A stretch of DNA of 64,000 nucleotides from the NCBI GenBank assembly GCA_035702585.1, contig DASSQI010000002.1, positions 59-64,058 on the forward strand. The letters are read 5' to 3'. Both the position numbers and the translations under genes were made by a program. Below the pieces are notes generated by a model. The model was not told where the DNA came from and did not search any database. It saw only the letters and a list, made by a program, of their open reading frames with translations. Source of the DNA: Anaeromyxobacteraceae bacterium. GTDB lineage: Bacteria > Myxococcota > Myxococcia > Myxococcales > Anaeromyxobacteraceae. Every line of letters begins with the position of its first letter. Position 1 is the stretch's first letter. This document shows, one piece after another, positions 2,814-58,390 of this stretch.

Positions 2814-2878
2814 CCGAGGGACACGCACGCATAGGATCGCCCGGTGCCGCGCCCACGCGGCGACCCGGGGAGTCCTCC

Positions 2879-4207: not shown

Positions 4208-4259
4208 CGCCGGGCGTCGTTGACCAACGTCATACCCGGCCGGTATACGCCGGCCTCCG

Positions 4260-5126: not shown

Positions 5127-5160
5127 GGGCGCCCGTAACTTGAGGAAGAGCACGAACGAA

Positions 5161-20255: not shown

Positions 20256-21227
20256 GTGTCCTTGTCCGTCCGGCCCAACGATGAACCCGCCCTCGATCCC
20301 GCGGCGCTGGCGGAGGACGTCGATCTCGCGCTCGAGGTGCGACGCGAGATCCTGCTCCTCGACGCGCGCCTGGAGCGGATGACGCACCACGAGCTGCTCG
20401 GCGTCGGGCGGCGCGCCACCGCCGAGGAAGCGCGGGCCGCCTACCTCGAGCGCGTGAAGCGCTACCACCCGGATCGTCACGCCGGGAAGCGGCTCGGGAC
20501 GTTTCGCGCCCGGCTCGACCGGATCACCCGCCGGCTGACCGAGGCCCGCGAGGTGCTGTCGAATCCGGAGCGCCGGGCCGAGTACGAGCGCAACACCGCC
20601 ACCCCCGACGACGTCGTCCGCATCGAGGTGCGCCGCCTCGAGGACGAGCTCCGCGCCGAGGAGCGCCGCTCCAGGCTCGGTCGCACGAATCCGCTGCTCG
20701 CGCGCACCACGCGCGTGGCCGAGCTGGTGAAGCGCGGCAAGGACGAGCTCGCCGCCGGGAAGCCGGACCGGGCCGCGAACGACTTCGCGACGGCGCTCGC
20801 GCTCGACCCGCGACACGTCGAGGCGCGGGTGCTCGGCGAGGAGGCGCGTCGCAGGGCCGCCTCGTTCCGGGCCGAGAGCGCGTGGACGGAGGGCCTGGCG
20901 GCGGAGGCATCCGGGCGTGACGGGCTCGCGCTCGAGCGCTTCCGGCAGGTCCTCGAGGGCAATCCGTCCCACCCGCGCGCGGCGCTCGCGGCCACGCGTG
21001 CGGCGCTGAGGCTCGGGCGCGTCGGTGAGGCGCGCGAGCTCGCGCAGGCGGCGGTACGCGCGTCACCCAGGACAGCCGCGGCGCACGCGGCGCTCGGCGA
21101 GGCCCTCGCCGCCGCGGGCGAGAAGGGCGACGCGAAGAAGGCGCTGGAGCGCGCGCTCGAGATCGATCCCCGGCTCGACGACGCGAAGGTCCTGCTGCGG
21201 AAGCTCCGCTGGAGCCTGTTCGGATGA
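20256..21227 (+). CDS. J-domain protein with C-terminal TPR repeats
   Basis: 323 aa, GTG start; J domain HHELLGV...AYLERVKRYHPDRH (HPD motif); TPR-like Ala-rich repeats. Confidence 0.8.
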   Translation: MSLSVRPNDEPALDPAALAEDVDLALEVRREILLLDARLERMTHHELLGVGRRATAEEARAAYLERVKRYHPDRHAGKRLGTFRARLDRITRRLTEAREVLSNPERRAEYERNTATPDDVVRIEVRRLEDELRAEERRSRLGRTNPLLARTTRVAELVKRGKDELAAGKPDRAANDFATALALDPRHVEARVLGEEARRRAASFRAESAWTEGLAAEASGRDGLALERFRQVLEGNPSHPRAALAATRAALRLGRVGEARELAQAAVRASPRTAAAHAALGEALAAAGEKGDAKKALERALEIDPRLDDAKVLLRKLRWSLFG

Positions 21228-23080
21228 CCACCGACCACGAGCCGGTCATCGGCATCGACCTCGGCACGACGAACTCGGTCGTCGCCGCCGTCGTGAACGG
21301 CTCCCCTCGCGTGATCCCGAACCGCGGCGGACAGCTCCTCACGCCGTCCATCGTCGCCGTCGCGAAGAACGGGAAGCAGCTCGTCGGCCAGCTCGCGCGC
21401 CGGCAGGCGATCACGAACCCGCAGAACACGATCCACGCCGCCAAGCGGCTCATCGGCAGGCGCTGGGGCTCGCGCGAGGTGGAGGACGCCCGCAAGGTCC
21501 TGCCGTACGAGCTGGTCGCCGGGCCGGGCGGCCACGACGTCCGCGTCGTCCTCGACGGGAATCCCATCTCGGTCCCTGAGGTCTCCGCGATGGTGCTCGC
21601 GGAGCTGAAGGCGGACGCCGAGGCGTTCTTCGGCCGCGTGATCTCGCGCGCCGTGATCACCGTGCCGGCCTACTTCAACGACGGGCAGCGGCAGGCGACG
21701 CGCGACGCCGGACGGCTCGCCGGCCTCGACGTGCTGCGCATCGTGAACGAGCCGACCAGCGCTGCGCTCGCGTACGGATTCGGCCGCGGGCTCGAGGAGA
21801 AGGTCGTCGTCTTCGACCTCGGCGGCGGGACGTTCGACGTCTCGATCCTCGACGTCTCGAAGAGCGTGTTCGACGTCGTCGCGGTCGGAGGGGACACCTA
21901 CCTCGGCGGCGAGGATTTCGACCGGCGCGTCATCGACGCGCTCGTGTTCGGCTTCGCGCGCGACCACGACGGGCTCGATCTGCGCCAGGATCGGATGGCG
22001 ATGCAGCGCATCCGCGACGCCGCCGAGCGCGCGAAGTGCGAGCTCTCCACCGTGCCGACCGCCGCGGTGCACCTGCCGTTCATCGCCGGCGGGACCGCTG
22101 GGCACCCGGCGCTCCACCTCGAGGCGCAGCTCACGCGCGAGCAGCTCGAGGACATGACGCGCGACCTGGTGGACCGCTGCATCCAGGTCACCGCGAAGAC
22201 GCTCAAGGAGGCCGGCCTCCGCCCGCAGCAGATCGGGGAGGTGCTCCTCGTCGGCGGTCAGACGCGCATGCCACGGGTGCAGCAGGCGGTGCGGGAGCTC
22301 TTCGGGCGCGAGCCGTCGCGCGGCGTGCACCCGGAGGAGGTCGTCGCGCTCGGCGCCGCGATCCAGGCGCAGGCGCTCACGGAGCCGGAGGCCAGCGCCG
22401 CAGAGGTGCTGCTCCTCGACGTGACCCCGCGCGATCTCGGCATCATGGTGGCCGGCGGGTTCTTCCAGACGGTCATCCCGCGGAACACGACGGTGCCGGC
22501 GAGCCAGACGCACGTCTTCACGACGTCGCAGGACTACCAGCCCACCGTGCGGATCTCGGTGCTGCAGGGCGAGAGCGAGCTCGCGGCCGAGAACGAGCTG
22601 CTCGGTGAGTTCATCCTCGAGGGCCTGCGCTCGGCGCGCCGCGGCGAGGTCGAGATCGAGGTGGCGTTCGACATCAGCGCGGACGGCATCGTGGGCGTCT
22701 CCGCCCGCGACGTGCACACCGGCCGGCAGCAGTCGATCACCGTCACGGCGACGTCGGGCCTCACCGAGCAGGAGATCCAGCAGATCCTCGCCGAGGGCGC
22801 GAGCCAGGCGCCCGCGCCTGCGGACGAGTCGGGTGCTCGCCGCCGGGCCGCGCTCGAGGCCGCCCTCGAGGAGATCGCCTCGCTCGAGCCCGCGGTGGCG
22901 CTCGCGCTCCAGCGCAGCCGGTTCGGCACCGACGCCCTCGACCGCGCGCACCGGCTCACGAAGCAGGCGCGCGAGGCGCTCGCGAGCGGCGACGGGCAGC
23001 GCATCGAAGCGGAGGCGCGCGACGTCGACCGGACGCTCCAGCTCTTCAGGTCGCTCGCGTCGGGCGGAGGCGTGGCGTGA
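21224..23080 (+). CDS. Hsp70 family chaperone (non-canonical DnaK paralogue)
   Basis: 618 aa; IGIDLGTTNSVVA, DLGGGTFDVSIL, VLLVGGQTRMPRV; start overlaps J-protein stop (ATGA). Confidence 0.9.
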   Translation: MTTDHEPVIGIDLGTTNSVVAAVVNGSPRVIPNRGGQLLTPSIVAVAKNGKQLVGQLARRQAITNPQNTIHAAKRLIGRRWGSREVEDARKVLPYELVAGPGGHDVRVVLDGNPISVPEVSAMVLAELKADAEAFFGRVISRAVITVPAYFNDGQRQATRDAGRLAGLDVLRIVNEPTSAALAYGFGRGLEEKVVVFDLGGGTFDVSILDVSKSVFDVVAVGGDTYLGGEDFDRRVIDALVFGFARDHDGLDLRQDRMAMQRIRDAAERAKCELSTVPTAAVHLPFIAGGTAGHPALHLEAQLTREQLEDMTRDLVDRCIQVTAKTLKEAGLRPQQIGEVLLVGGQTRMPRVQQAVRELFGREPSRGVHPEEVVALGAAIQAQALTEPEASAAEVLLLDVTPRDLGIMVAGGFFQTVIPRNTTVPASQTHVFTTSQDYQPTVRISVLQGESELAAENELLGEFILEGLRSARRGEVEIEVAFDISADGIVGVSARDVHTGRQQSITVTATSGLTEQEIQQILAEGASQAPAPADESGARRRAALEAALEEIASLEPAVALALQRSRFGTDALDRAHRLTKQAREALASGDGQRIEAEARDVDRTLQLFRSLASGGGVA

Positions 23081-27726: not shown

Positions 27727-27782
27727 ACGAGCGCGCCCGCTCCGGCGCGCGCTGACGAGCGCGCCCGCTCCGGCGCGCGCTG
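27727..27782. repeat. 2 x 28-bp perfect tandem repeat, each unit a hairpin
   Basis: acgagcgcgcccgctccggcgcgcgctg twice; internal inverted repeat agcgcgcc/ggcgcgct; partial third copy at 27846-27862. Confidence 0.9.
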
Positions 27783-28671: not shown

Positions 28672-29457
28672 TCACCGCACGGTCGCCACCCCGGCCGCTT
28701 GCACGTCGCGGGCGAGCGGCGGTCTCCGCGCCTGCGCCTCGAGCTCGATCTCGAGCACGATCGGGAGGTGGTCGGACGCGAGCCGCGCGGTCTGGCTCGT
28801 GAGCACCTCGGCGCCGAGCACGCGGACGGCAGGACCGACGAACGCGCGATCGAGGCGCAAGAAAGGAAGCCGGGACGGGAACGTCGGCCCCGCGGAACGT
28901 CCGAGGACCGCGCCGTCGCGGAGGTGGCGCCCGATCCAGCGCGGCACCGCCGAGATGCGTGGCCACGGCGAGTTGAAGTCGCCGACCAGGACGAGCGGGT
29001 AGAGGAGCGCCGCGTCGCGCAGGATGTCGGCGGACAGGAGCTGGGACGCCTGGCGCCTGCGCTCCCGCCACGCGAGGCCAAGGTGGACGTTGAAGAAGTG
29101 GAGCGCGCCGCCGGGCACGTCGATGTCGGTGCGGAGACAACCGCGCGGCTCGCGCCCCGCCACTGATAGGTCGTAGGTGCGCGTCGCGGTGATCGGGTGG
29201 CGCGCGAGCGTCGCATTCCCGAACGGGAACCCCCGGCGAAGCTCCGTCGTCGCGTACGCGACGGAGAGCCCGGTGAGCTGCTCGAGCGCCGTCTTCGGAT
29301 CGGCGAGGCCCTCGCGACCGCGCAGCGCTCCGACCTCCTGCAGCCCTGCGACGTCCACCCGGGCGTCGATGATGACCTGCGCGACGCGATCGGGATCGTG
29401 CCGGCGACTCCGGCCGTGCATCCCGTGCACGTTCCAGGTCATCAGACGGAGCGACAT
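28672..29457 (-). CDS. endonuclease/exonuclease/phosphatase (EEP) family protein
   Basis: In ORF 28672-30594; start MSLRLMTWNVHG; GLQEV, LVLVGDFNS, ASDHLPIV EEP motifs; starts 1 nt after upstream stop. Confidence 0.85.
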   Translation of the reverse strand: MSLRLMTWNVHGMHGRSRRHDPDRVAQVIIDARVDVAGLQEVGALRGREGLADPKTALEQLTGLSVAYATTELRRGFPFGNATLARHPITATRTYDLSVAGREPRGCLRTDIDVPGGALHFFNVHLGLAWRERRRQASQLLSADILRDAALLYPLVLVGDFNSPWPRISAVPRWIGRHLRDGAVLGRSAGPTFPSRLPFLRLDRAFVGPAVRVLGAEVLTSQTARLASDHLPIVLEIELEAQARRPPLARDVQAAGVATVR

Positions 29458-29458
29458 C

Positions 29459-31360
29459 TCAGCCGGTCTCCCGATCCTCGGTCGAGGTCTGCCGACCTTC
29501 CGGCGAGGTTTGCCGACCTTCGATCGAGGTGTGCCGACCTTCGGGCGAGGCCTCCCGATCCTCGGTCGAGGTCTGCGGACCCGCTGTCGAGGCCGAGCCT
29601 GGCGTCTTCGCATGCGCCGCGTCGAGCGGGCGCCGGACGCTCCTTCGCCGCTCGTGTGCAGGCTGGCGATAGTCGTCCGCGAAGAACCGATACAGCTCCG
29701 CGGGGCGGCGGACCTCGTCGAACCGGAACGCGCATCCGCGCGGGTGGATGACGAACGTGTCGATCTCCTCGGGCGCGACGCCGCCGTGCGATCCGAACTC
29801 CCACGCGTAGGCGACGGGCTTCTGCCCGGGACCGCGCCAGCCCTGCACGACGAGGTCGCCCGACTCCTCCAGCGCGAGCAGGTCGGCGAGGTAGTCGGCG
29901 AGGAGCGAGGGGTCGGGGTGGGGGAGGCGCGCGACGTCGTCCGGCGCGGAGAGATCGAGCTCGTCACCGTGGAGCAGCGCCACGCCGCGGTCTCCGCCGC
30001 GGACCGCCACCAGGCCCACGGCCCGGGTTTCGCGCAGCGCCTCGAGGACTCCGGGATGCTCGCGGCGGATGTCGTCGAGCGTCGCGGGCCTGTCGCGGTC
30101 GAGGAAGTACACGTGAGCGAGGTCGCCCGCCTCGGCGGTGGCGACCTTGCCCGTATGCGTCTGGCCGAGCTCGCGGCCGAGCAGCGTCTTCTCGAACGCG
30201 TCGAGCTGGCGTCGCGCCGCCCTGCGCGCGATCCGCGGCAGCGCGCCGCGCAGGCTGCGAAGGACGTGGCGCACTCCGCGCGCCTGCGCGAGCCGGTGCG
30301 CTGCGAGGCCGCCGAGCGAGCGTGGCACCGAGACGCCTCCGTCGGCGAGCGCGATGTACTCGGGCAGCGACAGGCCCGTGAGCGTCTCGAACGGCTCGGT
30401 GGCGACGTGGCCGTGATCGGAGAAGACGTAGACGTCGTAGCGCATCTCCGGCACCGCCTCGGCGGCGGCGAAGAGCGCGGCCACCGCGCGATCCGTCGAC
30501 TGCAGGCCCGAGACCGCGAGCGCCGACTCGGGGCCGCGGCGGTGCGCGAACTCGTCGTACGCGACGAAGTCCACGTAGACGATCGGTATGCCACGCGCGA
30601 GGTCGATGACGATGCCCTGGACGGCGAGCTCGCGCATGAAGGCGTTCACGAGCAGGCGGTGGATGAAGAAGCGCGGCTCGTGCTTCATGCGGCCGAGCGT
30701 CGCGATCCTCGCGATGCCCTCGGCGATGCCGGCGATCGTCTCCCACACGCCGCGCGCGAGCACGCCCGCCGCCGTGATGCTGTGGACGAGCGTGGTGGCG
30801 AGGTGATCCCACGCGTTGAAGCCGGCCGAGAGCGGCGCGAGCTTGAAGTCGGGCAGGCCCGACAGGCAGAACTGCGACAGCTTCGCGGCGCCGCTGAAGA
30901 TCGCGAAGTACGACGTGCCGTCCCGCAGGAGCCCGGGGTTTCGCTCGGCGAACCGCGTCTCGACGCGGCAGGCGTCCACCGCGGTGTCCATCCGGATCTC
31001 GCGGCCGGTCGCGCGGTCGTACCAGACGAACCCCGGGACCGACGGCGACACTCCGTAGAAGAGCCCGGCCTGGAACGCCGGCGTCGAGGCCGGCGCGCCC
31101 GACCTGCACGACGAGAGGACCTGACCTCCTCGCGACAGCCGGTCGGCGAGGAACGGCATGTGACCCTTCGCGATCGCCCACTCGAGGCGCTGCCGCGACA
31201 CTCCGTCGAGCTGCACCAGGAGCAGGCGCCGGCCGCCCTCGAGCGGTCCTGGATGTAGAGCTCCGCGCCGCGCCACGGGGATGAGCAGCTTGCGGACCGC
31301 CCACCGGACGAAACGCGACAGCTGATCCTGCGCGCGGCCGGCCTTCGGAATGCTGGCCAT
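29459..31360 (-). CDS. alkaline phosphatase / nucleotide pyrophosphatase (type I phosphodiesterase) family protein
   Basis: 633 aa; LLLVQLDGVS, PASTPAFQAGLFYG, VYVFSDHGH metal-site-like motifs; C-terminus made of heptad repeats. Confidence 0.8.
   Translation of the reverse strand: MASIPKAGRAQDQLSRFVRWAVRKLLIPVARRGALHPGPLEGGRRLLLVQLDGVSRQRLEWAIAKGHMPFLADRLSRGGQVLSSCRSGAPASTPAFQAGLFYGVSPSVPGFVWYDRATGREIRMDTAVDACRVETRFAERNPGLLRDGTSYFAIFSGAAKLSQFCLSGLPDFKLAPLSAGFNAWDHLATTLVHSITAAGVLARGVWETIAGIAEGIARIATLGRMKHEPRFFIHRLLVNAFMRELAVQGIVIDLARGIPIVYVDFVAYDEFAHRRGPESALAVSGLQSTDRAVAALFAAAEAVPEMRYDVYVFSDHGHVATEPFETLTGLSLPEYIALADGGVSVPRSLGGLAAHRLAQARGVRHVLRSLRGALPRIARRAARRQLDAFEKTLLGRELGQTHTGKVATAEAGDLAHVYFLDRDRPATLDDIRREHPGVLEALRETRAVGLVAVRGGDRGVALLHGDELDLSAPDDVARLPHPDPSLLADYLADLLALEESGDLVVQGWRGPGQKPVAYAWEFGSHGGVAPEEIDTFVIHPRGCAFRFDEVRRPAELYRFFADDYRQPAHERRRSVRRPLDAAHAKTPGSASTAGPQTSTEDREASPEGRHTSIEGRQTSPEGRQTSTEDRETG
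29466..29591. repeat. 6 x 21-bp tandem repeat encoding the C-terminal heptads of the phosphatase-family protein
   Basis: Units g(t/c)(c/t/g)t(c/g)ccga(t/c)c(c/t)t(c)(g)g... at 29466, 29487, 29508, 29529, 29550, 29571; protein reads STEDREA SPEGRHT SIEGRQT SPEGRQT STEDRET. Confidence 0.85.
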
Positions 31361-31424: not shown

Positions 31425-31549
31425 GAGCTCAGCTGCCGCTCGCCTGCCAGCGTATCTCGACGACCGTGAGCGAGACCGAGCCCAAGAGCTCAGCTCAGCT
31501 GCGGCCCGCTCGCCAGCGTATCTCGACGACAGTGAGCGAGACCGAGCCC
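31425..31549. repeat. about 60-bp tandem duplication of the greB 3' end
   Basis: 31425-31483 and 31486-31549 align (gagctcagct...cgccagcgtatctcgacgac(c/a)gtgagcgagaccgagccc); second copy holds the real greB stop. Confidence 0.85.
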
Positions 31550-36980: not shown

Positions 36981-38753
36981 TCATCGCCTGCGGTGAGACG
37001 ACACCTCGGCCCACGTGAGAGCCCCGGGCCTACGCGCGTGGTGCAATCGGTACCGACCGCCGCGCGGCGGCCCTCGTGATGTCGCGGAATCGTCACGGCG
37101 CTCGGGGAGGTCGCCGGGGCTGTCTGCCGTGCGCCGCCCCAGCGGTGGCGCCATGGCCGCATCGACCGTCGGCGGGTGCGGCTGCGCTCGACTACTGCTC
37201 GCCGTCTGATCCTTCTGTAACGGCCGGCTTGCCTCGCCGGCGGCCCTCGCAGGCTGTTCCTTCTGCGACGACGGGCTCGCCTCCACCGCGCGCGCCGCGG
37301 TAGTGAACCGTTTCATCCACTCGAACCCGAACTCCTGCTCCGCCGCGAGCTTGTTATGCGTTCGGCAGAGGACCCGAACGTTGTCGACGGTGGACGGACC
37401 GCCGCGTGCCCTCGGAATCTTGTGGTCGAACTCGAGCTGCTTGCGGGACCCGCAGATGCCGCCCGATGCGAGCGGCCATTGGCAGCATCCCCGGTCGCGT
37501 TTGAACACGTCGCGCTTCACGTGCGCCGGGATGTAGCCGGGCTGCTTCGAGGCGCGCGCCTCGGCGCGCGGGTTGCGCACGAGACCCTTGCGAACGGCGA
37601 GGTGCTCCAGAACGAGGTCGAGCCCCGTCTCGAGGATTCGCGCGAAGTCGGCCGACTCTCGGGAATGCGAGAGCGCGTCGCGCGCCGCCTTCAGCTTGTC
37701 CACGAAGCTCTTCGACACCGTGATGTGGAGCCTGCGCAGCTCGGCGCTCAGCACCTCGAGCATCTCCGCAGCCGACGCGAGCTGCTGGGGCGCGGGAATC
37801 GTCGCGCCGGTCGCCGCCGCCATGCCGGACGCGGCGTCTCCATCGTCGACCGCGGGCATCCATTCGGCGTGCAGCGGCGCGGAACCGGGGACCCCCGGGT
37901 CGCTGCCGGGGAGCTGTGAGGCGCAATGCGAGACCAGCCGGGCGTGACTCGAGGGCTGGGAAGCGCTCGAGGGCTGGGAAGCGACTGCCGAAAGGTGCGC
38001 GGCGGAACCCGAGGGCTGCGGAGCAGAACCCGAGCGCTGCGGAGCTGAACCCGAGAGCGGTGAAGCGAAACCGGAGGCGCTCGTTGCGGAACCCGACAGC
38101 GGCACACCGGCCGCGATACCCGGCAAATTCGTATGTGGCTGATCGGCGCGCCGAGCATCGTCGCGCAGAGGCTCCGGCGAATGGGGCGCGTTCGGACCGG
38201 AACTGCCTGCCCCGGCAACATTGCCTGCCCCGGTGAATCGCCCGATCGGCCTCGCTGCTCCGCCGAGCGTCGCCGTTACGGTCGCCGCGCCCGCGAACGG
38301 GGTGGGATTTTTCGCCGCGACGTTAGGCGTCGCGATCGGCCCGAACACCGCGCGCTGCGGCACGGGCCTGTCCGGCGACAGCTCGGCGACGATCTCCTTC
38401 GCCTCGGTCTTCGACGCACCGTAGAACCGAGGCAGGACGTGCGCGCGGTTCTCGGGCGTGAGGACCTTCGCGAGTTCGACGACGGTCATGATGCACAGGC
38501 GCCCATCGCGGAGCGGCTCGATGATCTCGGGGAACTTGTGCAGGAGCTTCGCCGCGGTCGCGCGGTAGTAGGCCGACCCGCTGGAGAGCCGCAGCTCGCG
38601 GTGGAGGAAGTAGTAGAGGCTCGAGTGGCCGAGCTGCATCCATAAACGGTGCCGATCGAAGTCCACGAGCGCGAGCAGGAACTCTGCCATTGAGTGGTGC
38701 TCCTTGCGGAGCAGAGCTTCGAGCTTGAGGTATTGCTCGCGTGCATTGGACAT
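36981..38753 (-). CDS. HNH endonuclease with DUF222-like N-terminal domain
   Basis: In ORF 36981-38984; start MSNAREQYLKLEALL; HNH core CCQWP...GICGSRKQLEFDHKIPRARGGPSTVDNVRVLCRTHN; repetitive Ser/Gly/Pro linker; long Arg-rich tail of doubtful reality. Confidence 0.85.
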   Translation of the reverse strand: MSNAREQYLKLEALLRKEHHSMAEFLLALVDFDRHRLWMQLGHSSLYYFLHRELRLSSGSAYYRATAAKLLHKFPEIIEPLRDGRLCIMTVVELAKVLTPENRAHVLPRFYGASKTEAKEIVAELSPDRPVPQRAVFGPIATPNVAAKNPTPFAGAATVTATLGGAARPIGRFTGAGNVAGAGSSGPNAPHSPEPLRDDARRADQPHTNLPGIAAGVPLSGSATSASGFASPLSGSAPQRSGSAPQPSGSAAHLSAVASQPSSASQPSSHARLVSHCASQLPGSDPGVPGSAPLHAEWMPAVDDGDAASGMAAATGATIPAPQQLASAAEMLEVLSAELRRLHITVSKSFVDKLKAARDALSHSRESADFARILETGLDLVLEHLAVRKGLVRNPRAEARASKQPGYIPAHVKRDVFKRDRGCCQWPLASGGICGSRKQLEFDHKIPRARGGPSTVDNVRVLCRTHNKLAAEQEFGFEWMKRFTTAARAVEASPSSQKEQPARAAGEASRPLQKDQTASSSRAQPHPPTVDAAMAPPLGRRTADSPGDLPERRDDSATSRGPPRGGRYRLHHARRPGALTWAEVSSHRRR

Positions 38754-38951
38754 GGGCGAAGCATTGCGCTTGCCTCTGACAGAATTATATCGACGAGGTG
38801 GGTCAATTGCGCACCGGGCCGGCGACTCATGCAGATCGGCGCAGGACGTGCATGTCGCAACTTCAACCAGTTGAAGCGCACGGATAGTGAACCTGATGGC
38901 CTGAGTCGCGCGGCAGGACATCGGCTCGCCGTGAGCCTCGCGCGACGCGCG

Positions 38952-39030
38952 TGCACGGGTCGTACACTCCGCGCTCAGCTGCACGGGTCGTACACTCCGC
39001 GCTCCGTCACGGGTTCGTACACCTCCTCGC
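38952..39030. repeat. about 2.8 x 28-bp tandem repeat upstream of the HNH gene
   Basis: tgcacgggtcgtacactccgcgctc(agc/cgt) at 38952 and 38980, degenerate third unit cacgggttcgtacacctcctcgcg. Confidence 0.8.
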
Positions 39031-42124: not shown

Positions 42125-42158
42125 GACGGCAGAAGCTCGCTGACGGCAGAAGCTCGCT
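42125..42158. repeat. 2 x 17-bp tandem repeat 5 nt after the kinase stop
   Basis: gacggcagaagctcgct twice, then partial gacg. Confidence 0.85.
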
Positions 42159-42384
42159 GACGCGCCGGATCAGGCAGAGCCAGCGAGAACCCATTTCCGA
42201 TGCCGCGGCTCGACCGCGCTTTGGGGCGGGCCGAGCAGCTGGCGCCTCACGGGCCTGCCGGCAGCGCGCCGCCCTCCACGCAGGCGAGCGCTCCTGTCTC
42301 GCGTTGGGTCGTGTCCCGTCTTGGCGGGCGCGACCAACGTTTGATCCACAGACGCAGAAGTCCACGGCGTCGCCTGAGGGGCAC

Positions 42385-47353: not shown

Positions 47354-47719
47354 TCAGGCGATCGGTGACGAGCCGCCCGCCGGGTCTGCGAACCGCGTCA
47401 CCGCCTCGAGCAGCTCCGAGAGCTCGAACGGCTTGCGAAAGACGAGGTTCGCGCCCGGCACGTGCAGCACCGAGCTCGCTGTCACGACGATGACCGGTAG
47501 CCGGGCGTACTGCGGCACCTTCCGGAGCTGCCGGATGAGCGTCGCGCCGTCCATGTGCGGCATCATGAGATCCGTGACGATGACGGCCGGCGAGGTCGAG
47601 GCGAGCGCGCGGAGCGCCGCCTGCCCGTGTTCGGCGGGCACGACGTCGAACCCCTCGGCGCTGAGCTCGTCGACCATGATCTCCCGGATGTCCGGGTCGT
47701 CTTCGACGACGAGCACCAT
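47354..47719 (-). CDS. single-domain response regulator (receiver only)
   Basis: ORF 47354-47749, probably from MVLVVEDDPD; phospho-acceptor VTDLMMPHMDG, VVTA, KPF. Confidence 0.8.
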   Translation of the reverse strand: MVLVVEDDPDIREIMVDELSAEGFDVVPAEHGQAALRALASTSPAVIVTDLMMPHMDGATLIRQLRKVPQYARLPVIVVTASSVLHVPGANLVFRKPFELSELLEAVTRFADPAGGSSPIA

Positions 47720-47805
47720 GTGTGATTGCACAGCCCTGATGGTGTGCACACCGCGGCGAGTTCGCCGCGTGGCGCACGCTCGATCGGCCGGTCAGTGCCA
47801 GCCGC

Positions 47806-47811
47806 TACAAT
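47806..47811 (+). promoter_or_regulatory. possible -10 element (TACAAT) 6 nt before the EEP gene ATG
   Basis: gccgcTACAATggagcgATG; no convincing -35; would imply a leaderless or very short-leader transcript. Confidence 0.25.
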
Positions 47812-47817
47812 GGAGCG

Positions 47818-48696
47818 ATGTTCAGTCGAGCCGCGCCCCTGCTGATCGCCGCAGCCGTCACGGCGTGCGTCCCGCGCCCCCAGCTCGCGGCGCCCACGCC
47901 ACCCGCGACGGTGAAGGTCGCGACATGGAACGTGAAGGACTTCTTCGACGCGAAGGACGACCCTCGCAAGGAGGACGACGTCCCCGCCGAGGCGGCGGTC
48001 GCGCGCAAGATCGAGCTGCTGGCGACTGTGCTTCGCGAGATCGACGCCGACGTCATCCTGCTCCAGGAGGTCGAGAACGTCGAGCTGCTGCAACGGCTCG
48101 CCGTCGCCGCTGCTCCGCTCCACTACGGCGCATACCTGCGGGAAGGCGCGGATCCGAGGGGGATCGACGTGGCGCTCCTCGCGCGCACGCGGCTGCTCCG
48201 CTACGACGGCCACCTGCACGATCTCGACTCGAGCGGGAAGCCGCTGTGGTCTCGCGATCTCGTCGAGGCGCACCTCGACGCGGGAGGGCGACAGCTCGTG
48301 ATCGTCGGGTCGCACCTCAAGTCGAAGCGTATCTCGCGCTCCGACGACCGGAGGCGCGAGCAGGCCGAGCGAATGAGGGCGGTGGCGGACGACGTCCGAG
48401 CGCGCTGGCCGGCGGCGCTCGTCGTCATCGCCGGCGATCTGAACGACGATCCCGACAGCTGGTCGCTGCAGCCGCTGCTCGAGGACGGGACGTGGGTCGA
48501 TCTCGGGTCGCGCCTCCCGGACGATGCGGCGTGGACCTGGTCGTCGAGAGGTCGCGGGCGATCGCGACTCGACTACCTCATCGTCCCGCGGGCGCAGGAG
48601 GCGCGCGTGCGCAGCCTCACGGTGTGGTCCTCGCCCGCGGTGATGCAGGCGTCCGATCATCGCCCCGTCGTGGCGGTGATCGAGGTGGGACGGTGA
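47818..48696 (+). CDS. lipoprotein endonuclease/exonuclease/phosphatase (EEP) family protein
   Basis: 292 aa; MFSRAAPLLIAAAVTAC lipobox; VATWNVKDFFD, VILLQEVEN, AGDLNDD, ASDHRPV. Confidence 0.85.
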   Translation: MFSRAAPLLIAAAVTACVPRPQLAAPTPPATVKVATWNVKDFFDAKDDPRKEDDVPAEAAVARKIELLATVLREIDADVILLQEVENVELLQRLAVAAAPLHYGAYLREGADPRGIDVALLARTRLLRYDGHLHDLDSSGKPLWSRDLVEAHLDAGGRQLVIVGSHLKSKRISRSDDRRREQAERMRAVADDVRARWPAALVVIAGDLNDDPDSWSLQPLLEDGTWVDLGSRLPDDAAWTWSSRGRGRSRLDYLIVPRAQEARVRSLTVWSSPAVMQASDHRPVVAVIEVGR

Positions 48697-48794
48697 TGCG
48701 CCCGGGGCAGGGCGAGCGTGTGGTGATCGACGCGAGCGGTGACACCATCTCGATCTCGCCCGGCGTGGCCGCGCTCACAGGAGAGCCTCGGTGA
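48696..48794 (+). CDS. 32-codon mini-ORF bridging the EEP and radical-SAM genes (hypothetical)
   Basis: ATG shares its A with EEP stop (tgATG); its TGA overlaps the GTG of the next gene (GTGA); MRPGQGERVVIDASGDTISISPGVAALTGEPR; 27 of 32 codons end in G/C. Confidence 0.35.
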   Translation: MRPGQGERVVIDASGDTISISPGVAALTGEPR

Positions 48795-49492
48795 CGCCGA
48801 GCGGCTCGCGCGATGGCTGTTCGACCGCGAGCAATCCGCGCGACGTCCTGAACGTCGCGGCCCGGATCGTGGCGACCGAGGCGGAGGGCCCTGGGCTCAG
48901 ATACGCCCTATGGGTCCAGGGTTGTCCGCTGCGTTGCGACGGGTGCTGCAACCCGGGGATGCTCCCGTTCGTCAGGGCGACGGAGCTGACGGTGGGCGAG
49001 GTGGCCGCGGAGCTTTGCTCGACCCCGCTCATCGACGGCGTCACCTTCCTCGGCGGTGAGCCGTTTGCGCAGGCCGAGCCGCTCGCCCGGGTAGCGCATG
49101 CGGCGCGCGAGCGCGGCCTCTCGGTGCTCGTGTTCAGCGGCTACACCATCGAGGAGCTGCGCGCGCCCGACCGGCGGTCGTGGACCGCGCTCCTCGCCGA
49201 GACCGATCTCCTCGTGGACGGTCGCTATCAGGCTGGAAATCCTGCCGTCCTGCGGTTCGTTGGGTCCGCGAACCAGCGGCTTCACGCGCTCACGGGGCGA
49301 GGAGCAGCCCTCGCGCGCGAGTTCGAGCGCGGGCCCGACCTCGTCGAGGTGCGCATCGACGGGGCGTCCGCGCCCGTTCTCGGTTCATCTGTTCCACCCG
49401 TCCGCGGAGTGTCCGTGACGATGAACGGCACGCCGGACGGCATCTCAATTTGCTGTGAACCGCGATCAGGTGACACGGCCCGGAAAGCCTGA
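48791..49492 (+). CDS. NrdG/PflA-like radical-SAM activase-family protein (4Fe-4S single-cluster domain)
   Basis: 233 aa; LNVAARIVATEAEGPGLRYALWVQGCPLRCDGCCNP (C-x3-C-x2-C), GVTFLGGEP, VFSGY; no glycyl-radical enzyme gene nearby. Confidence 0.8.
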   Translation: MTPSGSRDGCSTASNPRDVLNVAARIVATEAEGPGLRYALWVQGCPLRCDGCCNPGMLPFVRATELTVGEVAAELCSTPLIDGVTFLGGEPFAQAEPLARVAHAARERGLSVLVFSGYTIEELRAPDRRSWTALLAETDLLVDGRYQAGNPAVLRFVGSANQRLHALTGRGAALAREFERGPDLVEVRIDGASAPVLGSSVPPVRGVSVTMNGTPDGISICCEPRSGDTARKA

Positions 49493-49598
49493 GAACCACG
49501 ATTCAGGGACACGGCGTGGAGCGCCGAGCCGGGCGATTCCCCAATCTGGCCAGCTGCTTGGAGTGGCGATCCGCGAGACCGCGTCTCACCTTGGGACG

Positions 49599-49982
49599 GT
49601 GCCCTGCGATGGCGCGATCCTGGTCGTCGACGACGATCCCGACAACAGGGAGGCGGTGGCTGCGTCCTTCGCGAGGCTGGGCTGCTGCGTCGCGACGGCT
49701 CGCGACGGCGTCGACGCGCTCGAGCAGCTCTCTCGTCGGCGCGTGTGCCTCGTCATGCTGGACATGAACATGCCTCGGCTCGACGGCGCCGGGTTCGTTC
49801 GCGCGGTGCGCGGTGGTGTGCGCCCCGACCTGCCGATCGTGACGATGTCCGCGGGCGAGGATTGCGTGAGGCCCGAGGCCGTGCGGCAGCACCTCAAGAA
49901 GCCGTTCGATCCCGAGGTGCTGGCCGGCCTCGCCGCCGGTGTGTGTGACCAGCCACGATGGCTGCGCTGCCGGGGCAGCTGA
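49599..49982 (+). CDS. single-domain response regulator (receiver only)
   Basis: In ORF 49455-49982; ILVVDDDPDNRE, LDMNMPRLDG, VTMSA, KKPF; start uncertain (GTG 49563 or 49599; codons upstream are poor). Confidence 0.75.
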   Translation: MPCDGAILVVDDDPDNREAVAASFARLGCCVATARDGVDALEQLSRRRVCLVMLDMNMPRLDGAGFVRAVRGGVRPDLPIVTMSAGEDCVRPEAVRQHLKKPFDPEVLAGLAAGVCDQPRWLRCRGS

Positions 49983-50024
49983 GTCCGTCAACGACGTCGC
50001 CGCGAAAGGCTGAGTCCGTCAACG
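49978..50024. repeat. 16-nt direct repeat (31-nt period) spanning the receiver stop codon
   Basis: gctgagtccgtcaacg at 49978-49993 (contains TGA 49980-49982) and 50009-50024. Confidence 0.85.
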
Positions 50025-50081: not shown

Positions 50082-53000
50082 TCATGCCGCGCGCAACGTC
50101 GCGTACTTCTGCATCAACGCAGGGGGAATGGGCACGTCCAGCTCCCAGAGGACGTTCATCGGCCGACTCCCCTGGTGCGAGCGGTAACGCGCGGGCCCGA
50201 GGAACGTGAACTGGTCCTCGACCGTCGGTCGCACGAACAGGAGGAAGCGCCAGCCGTCCGCTGCGCCTGAGGCGTAGCGTCTGCCGGTGGGAGAGGTGTC
50301 GCTCGTCGTACTCTGCGTCTGCCAGTGGAAGAGCGTCGGCGAGAGCGCGTAATCCTCGTACGAGGTCGTCGGCGAGAAGTGCTCGGCGGACTTGCGAAGC
50401 GTCACGAAGAGCAGCTCGATCTTCTCGTCGCGCAGCCGGTACGTGCCCTCCATCGAGAACACCTGGCGCTCGGGAGTAGACCGCCCGATCGCGGCGAAGA
50501 CCTCCTCGCGGGCATAGGTCCGGTGCGGTGCGAGCGGCCACTCGGGGGGCACGTCCGCGGGCCGGGAGGGCAACGAGACCCGATCCTCGAGCACGCTGCG
50601 CAGCTGCTTCAGCTCGTCGCACAGCGCCGGGTTCGACGTGATCGTCGCGAGCGCCGCCCCGAGGTCCGCGCCCGCTTGCACGGGGGCGGCGGAGTCGGAC
50701 CCCGAACGCGCACGGCGCGCTGGCGCGAGGATGCGCAGCCACAGCATCACGAGTCGGCGACGCGCACGCTCGTCGAGCGGCGTGCCGGCGCTCAGGTCTC
50801 CGTCGGCGAGCGTTTCGAGCTGCGCCAGCCGCGCTGGCTCGTCGACGTGCAGCAGGTTGCGCAGGCGCCTGCCGATCTCCTGCTCGCCCGGGGGCGGCGC
50901 CGCATCGAGCAGTCCGGCGGCGCGCCGCAGAGCCGTCCAGCCCCCCACGCCCGGCTTGTATACGTCCTGCACGTCACGGCCCGTCGCGTCGAGGAACGAC
51001 GCCAGCGTCACCGCGGGGCCGTGCTGGCGGACCAGTGCGCGGAGCTCGTCTGCGAGACGCTTCGTCCCGCCCTGGAGCGAGCCTCTCAGGTTCGCGAGCA
51101 CGTGCTCGCGTGCGATGCGCTCGAGCTCGACGTGGCAGCCGGACGGTAGCGTCGGGAAGCTCTCCTCGACGGCACGTCTCAGGTGCCCGCGCGAGACACC
51201 CGTGATCGCCGTCAGCTTCACGTCGAACCGGTACTCCGCGCGGGCCTGGCCGATGAAGTCGAGGACCAGCGTCGAGATCTTGCCGGAGTGCAGGCGCAAC
51301 CCGCGCCCGAGCTGCTGGAGGAAGATCGTGGCGCTCTCGGTCGGTCGCAGCAGGAGCAGCGTGTCGACGAATGGCAGGTCGACGCCCTCGTTGTAGAGGT
51401 CGCACGTGAACAGGAACGCCACCTCGCCCGCCTTGAGGCGCCGCGGCGCATCGCTTCGAGCGTCGGTCGGCGTCGCTCCGTGCACCGCGAGCGCCGGGAT
51501 TCCGGCCGCCGTGAACACCCGCGCCATGTACTCGGCGTGAGCGACGGAGACGCAGAACCCGAGACCTCGAACACGCGTGGGGTCGGGAACGAGGCTGCGG
51601 AGCTTCGCGATGACGAGCTGGGCCCGGCGATCATTGCCGGTGTACAGGTTGTCGAGTTCGGTCGTGTCGTAACCGCCGCGCTTCCATGCGACCTGCTTCA
51701 GCGACACAGGGTCGGCTATCCCGTAGTACTCGAACGGCGTGAGGAGCTGCTTCTCGAGCGCGTGCCACAGGCGGATGTCCGCTGCCACCCGGTGGTCGAA
51801 CCACTGGAGGATGTCTTCGCCGTCCGGTCGTTCCGGTGTCGCCGTCAGGCCGAGCAGGATCTCCGGGTCGAGTTGCCGCAGCACCCGGTCGTAGCTTCTG
51901 GCCGCCGCGTGGTGGAACTCGTCCACGACGACGAAGTGCCAGTGGCGCGCGAGCCCCGTGAGCTCGTCGCGGCGTGCGTCGAGGGACTGGATGGTCGCGA
52001 ACAGGTGGTCGTATGAGGCGGGCTTTGCGCCGTCGGCCAGCAGCTCGCCGAAGTTCGCGTCGCGCAGCACGTTCTGGAACGCGAGCTGCGCCTGCTCGAG
52101 CAGCTCCCTCCGGTGCGCCACGAAGAGCAGACGAGGGCGCACGCCGCCCCGGATCTGCCGCGCGTAGTCGAACGCGGCGATCATCGTCTTCCCGGTGCCT
52201 GTCGCGGCGACCACGAGGTTGCGACGGCGCTGGTGCTCCTCGCGCTCCACCGTGAGGCGGTCCAGGATCTCGCGCTGGAACTCGTACGGGCGAAGATCGA
52301 AGAACAGGCTGGGCCGTCGCGAGGAGCCGGAGCGTTCACCGGTGAGCGCGGCGGACAGCCTCGTCACCGCGCTGTCGTCGTCGGGATCGTATCGCTCGAA
52401 CTCACCGTCTTCCCACAGGGAGTCGAACGCGCCGCGGAACTTGCGGACGATGTGACCCGCGTCGGCCTCGCTCGCCTTCAGGCTCCATTCGAGGCCGTCG
52501 GACAGCGCCGCCGAAGAGACGTTCGCCGAGCCGACGTACACGGAGCTGAACCCGGTCCCCCGGTGGAAGAGCCAGGCCTTCGCGTGCAGGCGCGTACGCC
52601 TCGAGTCGTAGGAGACGCGGACCTCGGCGCCGGGCAGGCGCGCGATGGCGTCGAGCGCCTCGCGCTCGGTCGCGCCCATGTACGTCGTCGTCAGTACGCG
52701 TAGCCGACGGCCGTCGTTCGCGAACCGCTCGAACGGCTCCTTCAGCCGGCGCCAGCCGTGCCATTTGATGAACGACACGAGCATGTCCGCGGCGTCCGCG
52801 CTCGCGATCTCCGCCGCGAGCTCGGCGCCGAGCCGCGGCTCGCCCTTCGCGTGGGTCAGGAGCGTGGATGTCGCGAGCGGAACCGAGGGCCGCGGCGGTG
52901 GGGCTGGCGGCACGTGGATCGCGAGCAGCAACTCCGGCGGCACGACGACCTCCGCGCCCCGAAGTCCCTCGTCGTCGGCCCGCGTGCGGAGCGCCGTGAG

Positions 53001-53225
53001 CAGCTCGTTCACGAGGGCCGCCTGGCGCTCCACGCCGCGCTCCTTCGTGCGCAGTGCCGCTAGCACGCGAGCGAGCTCATCTCCGAAGTGCCGCGCAAGC
53101 CGTTCGTGCGCGAACGCGACGTCCAGCGGCTCGCGCGCGGCGGGCGCGGTGGCGCCCTCGAGGCACTCGGCCGTCGCCCGCGTGACGATAGAGTCGTAGA
53201 GCCCGGGCGGCAGGCGGCGCGGCAT
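50082..53225 (-). CDS. PLD-family nuclease / SF2 (ResIII-type) helicase / DUF3427 fusion protein
   Basis: In ORF 50082-53318, start MPRRLPPGLYDS; HKD motif LHAKAWLF...GSANVS; Walker A VVAATGTGKT, VVVDEFHHAA, LGLTATPER, helicase-C FTCDLYNEGVDLP...QQLGRGLR; C-terminal LLFVTL...FHWQTQ...FLLFVR...FTFLG typical of DUF3427. Confidence 0.9.
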   Translation of the reverse strand: MPRRLPPGLYDSIVTRATAECLEGATAPAAREPLDVAFAHERLARHFGDELARVLAALRTKERGVERQAALVNELLTALRTRADDEGLRGAEVVVPPELLLAIHVPPAPPPRPSVPLATSTLLTHAKGEPRLGAELAAEIASADAADMLVSFIKWHGWRRLKEPFERFANDGRRLRVLTTTYMGATEREALDAIARLPGAEVRVSYDSRRTRLHAKAWLFHRGTGFSSVYVGSANVSSAALSDGLEWSLKASEADAGHIVRKFRGAFDSLWEDGEFERYDPDDDSAVTRLSAALTGERSGSSRRPSLFFDLRPYEFQREILDRLTVEREEHQRRRNLVVAATGTGKTMIAAFDYARQIRGGVRPRLLFVAHRRELLEQAQLAFQNVLRDANFGELLADGAKPASYDHLFATIQSLDARRDELTGLARHWHFVVVDEFHHAAARSYDRVLRQLDPEILLGLTATPERPDGEDILQWFDHRVAADIRLWHALEKQLLTPFEYYGIADPVSLKQVAWKRGGYDTTELDNLYTGNDRRAQLVIAKLRSLVPDPTRVRGLGFCVSVAHAEYMARVFTAAGIPALAVHGATPTDARSDAPRRLKAGEVAFLFTCDLYNEGVDLPFVDTLLLLRPTESATIFLQQLGRGLRLHSGKISTLVLDFIGQARAEYRFDVKLTAITGVSRGHLRRAVEESFPTLPSGCHVELERIAREHVLANLRGSLQGGTKRLADELRALVRQHGPAVTLASFLDATGRDVQDVYKPGVGGWTALRRAAGLLDAAPPPGEQEIGRRLRNLLHVDEPARLAQLETLADGDLSAGTPLDERARRRLVMLWLRILAPARRARSGSDSAAPVQAGADLGAALATITSNPALCDELKQLRSVLEDRVSLPSRPADVPPEWPLAPHRTYAREEVFAAIGRSTPERQVFSMEGTYRLRDEKIELLFVTLRKSAEHFSPTTSYEDYALSPTLFHWQTQSTTSDTSPTGRRYASGAADGWRFLLFVRPTVEDQFTFLGPARYRSHQGSRPMNVLWELDVPIPPALMQKYATLRAA

Positions 53226-53392
53226 TCGCCGACCGTAACACGGGGACGGACATCCGCTGCGAACACGGTGGCTGGGGCGCGATCGAGCCACGCCGAGCGT
53301 GATTCCACGGGCGTCCACCGGTAAAGTGCGGCCACGAACCGGCGCGAGCCGTGACTCGAGGCCCGCCGCGGTTCCGTCGTGACCCAGTTCTG

Positions 53393-57182: not shown

Positions 57183-58301
57183 ATGGCCGACGCACGCGAT
57201 CCCAAGCCTTCCCCGCGAGAGCTGAGCGAGCTGCGCACGCTCATCGACAACCTGGACGAGCAGATCCTGAGGCTCCTGAACGAGCGCGCCGCGATCGCCG
57301 CCGAGGTCGGGGAGTACAAGCGCGCTGCCCAGCCCGGAGCGGCGTTCCACGTGCCGGCGCGAGAGCGCGAGGTGCTCTCCCGGCTCGAGGCGCTGAACAG
57401 CGGGCCGTTCCCGACCGACGCGATCAGGGCCGTGTTCCAGGAGATCATGAGCGCGTGCCTCAGCCTCGAGCGTCCGCTCCGCGTCGCCTTCCTCGGCCCC
57501 GAGGGAGCGTTCTCGCACCAGGCGGTGAAGCACCAGTTCGGCCTGTCGGCGCATCCGCTGCCGCAGCGCTCGATCGCGGAGGTGTTCCACGCGGTCGAGG
57601 GGCACCAGTCGGACTACGGCGTCGTGCCGGTCGAGAACGCGACCGAGGGCGTCATCGACGCGACGCTCGACGCGTTCCTGGAGAGCCCCCTCCGCATCAT
57701 CGGGGAGATCCTGCTCCCGCTCGAGCTGGCGCTGCTCGTGCATCACGACGCCGACCCTGCGAAGGTCCTGCGCGTCTACGGCCAGGCCGAGTCGTTCCGG
57801 CACGCCGACGCGTGGCTCTCGGGGCACCTCGCATCGGCGGCGCGGGTCGTCGCGTCGACGGCGGTGGAGGCGGCGCGGCTCACCCGCGAGGATTTCGACG
57901 GCGCCGCCGTGGCGCCCGACGTCGTCGCGAAGCTGTTCGACCTGAAGGTGGCCGCGGAGAACGTCCAGGGCGCAGGCTCGGACGCGACGCGATTCTGGGT
58001 GCTGGGGACGAGGTCCCCGGCGCCGACCGGGCGCGACCGCACGAGCCTCGTCGTCTCGGTGAAGAACAGCCCCGGCGTGCTGCTCCGGGTGCTGGAGCCG
58101 CTCGCGCGACGGGGGATCGACCTCTCGCGCATCGAGAGCCGCCGCGCACGGCGCCGGTCGGGCGAGTACGTGTTCTTCCTCGACCTCGACGGGCACGAGG
58201 CCGAGGAGCGCGTCGCCGCCGCGCTCTCGGAGGTGGAGCAGGTCAGCGCCGGGCTGAAGCTGCTCGGGAGCTATCCCAGGGCCGAAGAGCTGCGCCGCTG
58301 A
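57183..58301 (+). CDS. pheA: bifunctional chorismate mutase / prephenate dehydratase
   Basis: In ORF 56637-58301; start MADARDPKPSPRELSELR; CM domain LRTLIDNLDEQILRLLNERA, PDT RVAFLGPEGAFSH, TRFWVLG, ACT TSLVVSVKNSPGVLLRVL. Confidence 0.92.
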   Translation: MADARDPKPSPRELSELRTLIDNLDEQILRLLNERAAIAAEVGEYKRAAQPGAAFHVPAREREVLSRLEALNSGPFPTDAIRAVFQEIMSACLSLERPLRVAFLGPEGAFSHQAVKHQFGLSAHPLPQRSIAEVFHAVEGHQSDYGVVPVENATEGVIDATLDAFLESPLRIIGEILLPLELALLVHHDADPAKVLRVYGQAESFRHADAWLSGHLASAARVVASTAVEAARLTREDFDGAAVAPDVVAKLFDLKVAAENVQGAGSDATRFWVLGTRSPAPTGRDRTSLVVSVKNSPGVLLRVLEPLARRGIDLSRIESRRARRRSGEYVFFLDLDGHEAEERVAAALSEVEQVSAGLKLLGSYPRAEELRR

Positions 58302-58390
58302 TGCTCACGCGCTCGGTTGCGTGAGGATCAGCGCCGCTGACGCTCACGCGCTCGGTTGCGTGAGGAGCTGTCGGCTGACGCTCACGCGCT
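58293..58390. repeat. about 2.5 x 38/39-bp tandem repeat, each full unit a hairpin, between convergent pheA and kinase genes
   Basis: Units begin near 58293, 58331, 58374; hairpins ctcacgc-gctcggtt-gcgtgag at 58304-58325 and 58343-58364; unit 1 holds the pheA stop, unit 3 the kinase stop. Confidence 0.85.

Follow-up and report, generated by a model that had tools for sequence, protein, structure and literature searches.

We analysed a 64-kb window of the genome of an Anaeromyxobacteraceae bacterium (one contig of the genome, DASSQI010000002.1; G+C content, 71%) and focus here on two adjacent genes: one for a hydrolase of the EEP superfamily that is predicted to be an exported lipoprotein, and one for a small radical-SAM enzyme that resembles the activases NrdG and PflA. 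The two genes form a conserved cluster that is restricted to the Anaeromyxobacteraceae. On direct reading of the sequence, the EEP open reading frame (ORF; positions 47818–48696, forward strand) encodes 292 amino acids and ends in a TGA at 48694–48696, and the radical-SAM ORF (48791–49492, forward strand) encodes 233 amino acids. Between them lies a strain-specific spacer of 98 nucleotides (nt) on the forward strand (48697–48794). An ATG at 48696 shares its A with the EEP stop codon and opens a 32-codon frame (48696–48794; MRPGQGERVVIDASGDTISISPGVAALTGEPR), here called the mini-frame, in which 27 of the 32 codons have G or C at the third position and whose own TGA (48792–48794) overlaps the GTG at 48791 that opens the radical-SAM ORF. 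A Shine–Dalgarno-like AGGAGA stands at 48779–48784 on the forward strand, and its AGGAG core ends 7 nt before that GTG.

A stand-alone receiver gene lies on either side of the pair. The upstream one (47354–47749, reverse strand; 131 amino acids; Pfam Response_reg, E = 1.6e-21) is divergent from the EEP gene across an intergenic region of 68 nt. The downstream one (Response_reg, E = 1.2e-17) belongs to an ORF that opens at 49455 and carries its domain on residues 55–156. Because the domain starts at residue 55 of this long ORF, the GTG at 49599 is the more likely start; the gene would then cover 49599–49982 on the forward strand, encode 127 amino acids and leave a gap of 106 nt after the radical-SAM stop codon. 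Scans of the locus for promoters and terminators, made with a tool that is ill-suited to high-G+C genomes, found nothing. The first-pass annotation of this DNA had described the same base-level coordinates, overlaps, 32-codon frame, radical-SAM motif and following receiver, and all of these were borne out by direct reading and Pfam searches.

In the NCBI annotation, the radical-SAM gene begins at a GTG at 48869 and encodes a protein of 207 amino acids, a choice of start that would abolish the overlap with the mini-frame and that drops a conserved N-terminal strand (VLNVAARI). We regard the GTG at 48791 as the better start on sequence grounds, because it retains this strand, because the genes of relatives begin in the same way with GTGACG (V-T) and because AGGAGA precedes it at 48779–84.

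The gene pair across relatives

The radical-SAM proteins of the closest relatives, whose gene junctions we read, are 61–77% identical to that of the window, and the clade consists of intact ORFs of 55–77% identity spread over at least ten contig types. The EEP gene is kept beside the radical-SAM gene on nine of the ten distinct related contig types (11 of the 13 contigs), and lies upstream of it on L081/L082, L083, L164, L165, L166, L170, L167, L127 and the P0019 contig; the adjacency, which could have been a peculiarity of one strain, is therefore not unique to it. Of six junctions read base by base (L081, L082, L083, L164, L165 and L166), five show a direct GTGA overlap between the end of the EEP gene and the beginning of the radical-SAM gene; the sixth, L083, has a 7-nt gap. 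Through this overlap the two genes are translationally coupled in most relatives.

Homologues of the radical-SAM enzyme are also found well outside this clade. A genome scan with the protein recovered 80 loci from Myxococcus, Cystobacter, Nannocystis, Gemmataceae, Pirellulaceae and others, and a tblastn search with the EEP protein found no match in these 80 distant loci; the EEP linkage is thus confined to the closest clade. No relative with more than 61% identity came out of a metagenome scan for the radical-SAM protein. In a neighbour-joining tree rooted on L160, a locus with a genuine NrdD–NrdG pair, the EEP-linked radical-SAM proteins are monophyletic in 170 of 200 bootstraps, and their clade is nested within a large radiation linked to FtsH-type proteases (described below) in 141 of the 200 replicates. 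Both genes evolve under purifying selection, with ratios of non-synonymous to synonymous substitution (dN/dS) of 0.16–0.22 for the EEP gene and, within the subclade, 0.28–0.45 for the radical-SAM gene.

A sister subclade, represented by L167 and L127, has an EEP protein that is 48% identical to that of the window. Here an unrelated protein of 90 amino acids, with a coiled coil and a CxH...CxxC motif, is encoded between the EEP and radical-SAM genes (L167, 7732–8004; L127, 839–1108) and its gene shares 4 nt with the start of the radical-SAM gene. A second protein, of 120 amino acids, is encoded downstream of the radical-SAM gene in L167 (8721–9083), L168 (2881–3243) and L169 (923–1285), and it stays with the radical-SAM gene in L168 and L169, in which the EEP gene is absent. 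Searches with the 90- and 120-amino-acid proteins gave no significant family match, and both are candidate partners or substrates of the radical-SAM enzyme.

The EEP gene is also found without its neighbour. In Anaeromyxobacter oryzae (L171) an EEP orthologue stands without the radical-SAM gene, and so it does on the P0129 contig, which is syntenic with L170 and has the order GreA, MTHFR, EEP, receiver. In a comparison that had two unlinked sequences to draw on, no residue proved diagnostic in separating linked from unlinked EEP proteins. As each gene occurs without the other, a substrate relationship between the two products is unproven.

The receivers differ in how far they accompany the pair. 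The divergent receiver is present in every contig of the window subclade that reaches far enough upstream: L083, L165 and L170 have orthologues with 72–81% identity at the same position, and the P0019 contig has a Response_reg gene for 124 amino acids there. The downstream receiver occurs in two contexts, the window and L166, in which a receiver of 38% identity follows the radical-SAM gene; on the P0129 contig a receiver directly follows the EEP gene, with no radical-SAM gene between. Phosphorelay control, as proposed at first, is not supported: its sole basis is the adjacency of single-domain receivers, and of these the divergent one alone is conserved.

The two proteins and the parent family

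The EEP protein is a clear member of its superfamily. It matches PF03372 at 71.2 bits (E = 1.3e-19) and PF19580 at 67.0 bits (E = 1.9e-18), against gathering cut-offs of 24.5 and 27, and its catalytic residues N38, E84, H166, D207/N209 and D280/H281 are invariant among 52 homologues. A lipobox-like signal sequence, MFSRAAPLLIAAAVTA-C17, can be read at the N terminus, and C17 is kept in at least 90% of the same homologues. The AlphaFold2 (AF2) model has a mean predicted local distance difference test (pLDDT) score of 91.6, and in a Foldseek search TDP2, DNase I, neutral sphingomyelinase and Nocturnin match it about equally (E = 1e-13 to 1e-15); these matches confirm the fold but do not tell a nuclease from a phosphatase or a sphingomyelinase. 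The model for ExeM/NucH extracellular endonucleases (NF033681) scored 48.6 bits, below its cut-off of 300. Sequence searches of the PDB with the EEP and radical-SAM proteins gave weak matches to TDP2 and PflA only. We take the EEP protein to be, most probably, a phosphodiesterase or nuclease that is exported and anchored in a membrane, which would separate it from the radical-SAM enzyme in the cytoplasm. A second EEP paralogue lies elsewhere in the window (about 28747–29700, reverse strand; PF03372, E = 2.4e-21) and is 29% identical to the EEP protein of L167; the 5' part of its gene holds a tandem array (21 nt × 6, or 42 nt × 2.7; repeats at 29465–29592).

The radical-SAM protein has the cluster motif EGPGLRYALWVQGC-PLR-C-DG-C-CNP, that is, C-x3-C-x2-C followed by a fourth cysteine and then NP. 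C45, C49 and C52 and the motif G88-G89-E90 are invariant among 60 homologues, and together with the Fer4_12 match (E = 4e-29) and the structural model these place the protein in the radical-SAM superfamily, among the activase-like enzymes with a small barrel. The AF2 model (pLDDT, 81.7) finds its best PDB match in the PFL-activating enzyme (PFL-AE) with bound peptide substrate (3cb8; E = 1.4e-7), and the EGPGLR of the window enzyme aligns with the DGPGIR of PflA. QueE and viperin match far worse, with E = 3.5e-3 for QueE (5tgs).

A comparison with profile models, which the first-pass annotation had suggested, leaves the enzyme below every relevant cut-off. The best NCBIfam match is NrdG (TIGR02491; 92.8 bits, E = 1.9e-26, cut-off 126.1), the model being covered almost end to end (positions 10–153 of 154); an FtsH-linked relative scores 86.1 bits against the same model. 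Scores for PflA (TIGR02493; 53.8 bits, cut-off 231.75), for PFLE_PFLC (39.7 bits, cut-off 174.35), among the glycyl-radical activase subfamilies (TIGR02494 and others), and for QueE (TIGR04349; 19.4 bits, cut-off 300) lie lower still. At E ≤ 0.01 the protein matches 18 NCBIfam families, and the TatD-linked family TIGR04038, cited in the first-pass annotation as a precedent for a radical-SAM enzyme paired with a nuclease, is not one of them. The likeness to that family is one of concept, in that a small radical-SAM protein is encoded beside a metal-dependent nuclease-type hydrolase, but the hydrolase here is a predicted lipoprotein of the EEP fold and not a TatD TIM barrel.

With NrdG and PflA, the enzyme shares C-x3-C-x2-C, (D/E)GPGxR, the SAM-binding GGEP motif, the truncated barrel and, from NrdG, RxxGSxNQ. 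It differs from them in its low scores, in some 50 additional residues at the C terminus and in having no glycyl-radical enzyme nearby, either here or in its relatives. No glycyl-radical motif was seen in any large frame of the window and no NrdD or PFL domain in its ten largest ORFs, a limited test that agrees with the absence of an NrdD- or Pfl-like gene noted before. In the neighbourhood survey, the homologues do not stand beside nrdD: among 24 scanned loci without FtsH-system genes, only L160 has an adjacent NrdD-like frame, one of 1207 amino acids (about 2200–5900) with RITGYL 23 residues from its C terminus, directly upstream of the radical-SAM gene at 6001–6408.

The enzyme instead belongs to a large family with a home of its own. 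More than 4,000 homologues were found at E ≤ 1e-5, with the shared motifs TEAEGPGxRxAxWxQGCPxxCxGCCNP, GGEPF, DLLVDG and RxxGSxNQ and a conserved C-terminal extension of about 50 amino acids that is missing from the 154-position NrdG model. When the neighbours of the 80 genome loci were sorted by de novo clustering and Pfam searches, the usual arrangement was an operon headed by the radical-SAM gene, followed by fvmX6, fvmX5, an FtsH-like AAA+/M41 protease and fvmX7. For example, L063 matches fvmX5 (E = 1.2e-19), AAA (6.1e-41) and Peptidase_M41 (3.1e-40), and L062 matches fvmX6 (1.3e-138) and fvmX7 (5.3e-106). At least one FtsH-system gene lies within 8 kb of the homologue in 65 of the 80 loci, and several of the others lack downstream sequence. 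In three loci scored as FtsH-negative (L016, 8512–9741; L094, 6646–7827; L025, 8558–9340), the N terminus of the downstream ORF resembles a diverged fvmX6, and given these ORFs the count of 65 may be an underestimate.

Operons of this content belong to the 'simple' FtsH ternary (FtsH–vWA–MoxR) conflict systems of Kaur, Burroughs, Iyer & Aravind (eLife 2020; PMC7159879), who give the radical-SAM component one sentence, predicting that it modifies a peptide effector. Our assignment of the relatives' loci uses the matches to fvmX5, fvmX6, fvmX7 and the FtsH-like protease rather than MoxR or vWA. The window enzyme is 42–57% identical to the proteins of the 65 FtsH-linked loci, among which its clade is nested, and it has the same motifs and the C-terminal extension. 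The idea of an undescribed orphan enzyme therefore had to be given up: its family normally heads Pfam-catalogued operons of this kind (PMC7159879). The locus itself is not an FtsH ternary system, although its enzyme descends from the radical-SAM family of that system and would work in a like manner. A tblastn search with the FtsH-system components of L062 and L063 found nothing significant in the window, and in place of FtsH, fvmX5, fvmX6 and fvmX7 the neighbours encode a predicted EEP lipoprotein and stand-alone receivers. Within the C-terminal extension, the window clade has substitutions of its own relative to the FtsH-linked family, for example, LRFVGS for RRWIGS and VNGTP for INGFP. PADLOC gave no defence-system match for the EEP and radical-SAM proteins, fvmX6, fvmX7 or the 90- and 120-amino-acid proteins of L167.

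A literature search turned up nothing relevant on an EEP–radical-SAM pairing or on 'NrdG-like' proteins. We regard the pairing as an undescribed, lineage-restricted arrangement of a known, biochemically uncharacterised enzyme family.

The 98-nt spacer and the 32-codon frame

Judged by the refuting condition that the first-pass annotation had set, the mini-frame is not a conserved element of the module. None of the six relatives' junctions contains the 98-nt spacer or has room for a small ORF, and a tblastn search with the mini-frame peptide found no match in 163 loci or in the close relatives added later. The peptide also has no Pfam or NCBIfam match. An open frame of this length is uninformative here, because 71% of random positions and frames of the window contig stay open for at least 32 codons; the mini-frame is itself the tail of a spurious open frame of 453 amino acids (47433–48794).

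The spacer resembles the gene that it follows. The hexamer CGGTGA occurs twice, at 48691–96 and 48789–94, bounding the 98 nt, and the spacer can be aligned with the final ~97 nt of the EEP gene (48596–48696) at a score of 24. Shuffled sequences scored 7.8 ± 2.5 (0 of 2000 reached 24) and random genomic 101-mers 9.3 ± 2.9 (0 of 1980). A Shine–Dalgarno-like GAGGTG at 48682–87 precedes the GTG at 48693 and the ATG at 48696 at the first copy of the junction and is the counterpart of AGGAGA at the second. The simplest reading is that the spacer is an old, degenerate tandem duplication of the EEP 3' end plus the stop/start junction, and the mini-frame looks like a strain-specific by-product of this duplication rather than a gene. 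A duplication of ~98 nt would have copied the Shine–Dalgarno–GTGA start signal, with the downstream copy keeping the Shine–Dalgarno sequence and GTG for the radical-SAM gene, and the upstream copy may still start a short read-through frame that ends exactly at the real radical-SAM start. Two other identities for the spacer were rejected: it has no second copy within the window, as a mobile or repeated element would, and its predicted fold is unremarkable for a structured RNA (z = −0.54).

Short tandem duplications are pervasive in this DNA. The tandem-repeat program TRF returned 107 rows for the 64 kb, with periods of 17–66 nt, about two copies and often 90–100% identity (for example, 27727–27782, 31426–31549, 38951–39030, 42125–42162 and 58287–58390). 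Three successive gene ends at the locus bear such duplications in their stop regions: 98 nt at the EEP gene (48596–48794), 36 nt × 2 at the radical-SAM gene and 16 nt at the downstream receiver gene. The 36-nt duplication (49453–49524, forward strand; two copies, 72% identical) spans the radical-SAM stop codon, and its first copy has TGT where the second has an in-frame TGA, which adds a tail of 12 codons to the radical-SAM gene. At the receiver gene, a perfect 16-nt repeat (GCTGAGTCCGTCAACG; 49978–50024) has copies 31 nt apart and spans the stop codon. These gene-end duplications may reflect a genomic habit or an effect of assembly.

Readings of the pairing

We lean towards regarding the EEP and radical-SAM proteins as co-expressed, functionally separate activities. 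In this lineage a radical-SAM offshoot has left the FtsH ternary system; it would either have been captured behind a resident chromosomal EEP gene or have been left stranded next to it. The enzyme would bind a [4Fe-4S] cluster through C-x3-C-x2-C and cleave SAM to a 5'-deoxyadenosyl radical, like NrdG and PflA, and, with a barrel that is truncated and open and a (D/E)GPGxR loop, it could abstract a hydrogen atom from a protein or peptide rather than from a small molecule. We suggest a protein or peptide substrate because of this activase-like open barrel and the alignment of the loop with that of PflA; in PFL-AE (3cb8), the loop contacts the substrate peptide. The substrate is not the product of the mini-frame and is probably not the EEP protein. 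The pairing would then provide co-expression, perhaps with co-regulation by a receiver, of one cytoplasmic and one extracytoplasmic activity.

Several points weigh against this reading or the steps that lead to it. The GTGA overlap and the adjacency have survived divergence of the EEP protein to ~48% identity while the flanks changed, and such persistence usually signals functional partnership, not mere co-expression. The comparison of linked with unlinked EEP proteins has low power, with only two unlinked contexts. The argument for a protein substrate draws on resemblance of fold and motif; the equation of the enzyme's family with the radical-SAM component of Kaur et al. is drawn from the make-up of the operons rather than from accession lists; and the genome may have genes for an FtsH system or a glycyl-radical enzyme outside the window. 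As for the spacer, a nucleotide identity to the EEP gene of about 65–70% with indels makes moderate evidence of duplication, and the claim is made from the DNA alone, the similarity of the mini-frame peptide to the EEP C terminus not being significant, as is to be expected because of indels after duplication. Additionally, the GC periodicity of the mini-frame is coding-like (0.72/0.59/0.84), which we attribute to the duplication of a coding 3' end.

Because the overlap has long survived while the flanks changed, a maturase model stays alive, in which the EEP precursor would be modified by the radical-SAM enzyme while still in the cytoplasm, ahead of its export, and translational coupling would place the enzyme near its nascent substrate. 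Besides the 4-nt stop/start overlap in five relatives' junctions and the adjacency in the diverged sister subclade, the EEP gene is the sole gene constantly beside the radical-SAM gene across both subclades, and the best structural match, PFL-AE, acts on a protein. The analogy would be with anaerobic sulfatase-maturating enzymes (anSMEs), radical-SAM enzymes that act on exported sulfatases; in both cases a cytoplasmic enzyme is encoded beside a hydrolase that it could modify before export. The anSMEs have auxiliary clusters of the SPASM type and target a defined Cys/Ser motif, whereas the window enzyme has no SPASM domain in Pfam searches and the EEP protein has no identifiable target motif. 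Against the exported EEP protein as a substrate, as first suggested, stand the EEP orthologues of A. oryzae and the P0129 contig, which do without a radical-SAM neighbour, and the radical-SAM genes of L168 and L169, which have no EEP gene beside them; nor do linked EEP proteins have a distinctive Gly, Cys or Ser motif. Moreover, the canonical EEP catalytic residues are all present, so that an extra modification would be needless for the known chemistry, and the parent family serves FtsH systems without any EEP protein (0 of 80 loci). We consider the maturase model unlikely. A broader version, in which the enzyme was re-targeted from its FtsH-system partner to the EEP precursor or another protein that is not a glycyl-radical enzyme, and installs a radical-derived modification or a stable radical, seems quite unlikely to us.

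Alternatively, the radical-SAM gene might be a functionless remnant of a decayed FtsH ternary system, its place beside EEP being inherited synteny. Its nesting within the FtsH-linked radiation, its presence or absence within one syntenic region (L170 compared with P0129), the duplication scars at both ends of the window copy together with an insertion of 15 amino acids, and a dN/dS that is higher than that of EEP all fit such decay. Yet this dN/dS is well below 1, the cluster and SAM-binding motifs are invariant, the start-codon overlap and Shine–Dalgarno sequence have been kept, being formed anew even after the duplication, and the clade extends over its many contig types with ORFs intact, which makes a relic decidedly improbable. 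That the enzyme is a true NrdG-type activase, with a glycyl-radical partner (NrdD or another) elsewhere in the genome, is very improbable: NrdG is the best NCBIfam match over nearly the whole model, databases give homologues that name, only one contig of the genome is visible and the Anaeromyxobacteraceae include facultative anaerobes, but the score misses the NrdG cut-off, the C-terminal extension is foreign to the model, the genes of relatives belong to FtsH operons in aerobic Myxococcus, Nannocystis and Gemmataceae and do not neighbour nrdD, and the only true NrdD–NrdG pair recovered (L160) is distant in the tree. Scarcely credible, and largely refuted, is a real peptide encoded by the mini-frame, whether as a radical-SAM substrate, as first envisaged, or as a regulatory leader. 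It could appeal to exact stop/start overlaps at both ends, the upstream GAGGTG, the coding-like periodicity, the peptide partner predicted for the family (PMC7159879) and the 90-amino-acid gene at the same position in L167 and L127. However, the frame is absent from all six close-relative junctions, is unrelated to the 90-amino-acid protein, matches no Pfam or NCBIfam family and has a length that is the norm in this DNA, and the duplicated EEP 3' end explains both the segment and its periodicity.

Other genes in the window stand apart from the pair. A protein of 1078 amino acids with PLD, ResIII helicase and DUF3427 domains is encoded at 50082–53318 on the reverse strand, by a gene that converges with that of the downstream receiver; over nearly its whole length it fits the PADLOC model for a Type IV methyl-directed restriction enzyme (E = 6.5e-236), and its gene is not beside the radical-SAM gene in any relative. 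A 667-amino-acid ORF (36981–38984, reverse strand) has an HNH endonuclease motif (E = 4.3e-6) and a 21/42-nt tandem array (repeats at 38002–38103). Taken together, the HNH ORF and the Type IV restriction gene hint at several genes of a defence or mobile type on this contig. An ORF of 824 amino acids at 20477–22951 (reverse strand) matches Pfam NAD-GH (PF10712; E = 5e-120), with an ORF of 618 amino acids (21224–23080) on the opposite strand; as PF10712 is under suspicion of deriving from antisense shadow frames, the real gene at 20477–22951 may be on the forward strand.

The locus calls for two corrections of annotation: the small ORF is a duplication scar, and the NCBI start truncates a conserved strand of the radical-SAM protein. 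More broadly, aerobic and often multicellular bacteria (Myxococcota, Planctomycetota) have small NrdG-like radical-SAM proteins by the thousand that lack a glycyl-radical partner and are routinely misnamed 'anaerobic ribonucleotide reductase activating protein', and the sole published mention of this family is one predictive sentence. The EEP-linked clade shows that such an enzyme can exit a five-gene FtsH system and be maintained by selection with one hydrolase, probably exported, as its neighbour. Should the pairing not be functional, it illustrates the stranding and re-use of the effectors of conflict systems. If it is functional, a two-gene system would be far easier to reconstitute than a full FtsH system, and if the enzyme has indeed been re-targeted, this would be the simplest natural context in which to solve the chemistry of more than 4,000 'NrdG-like without NrdD' proteins.

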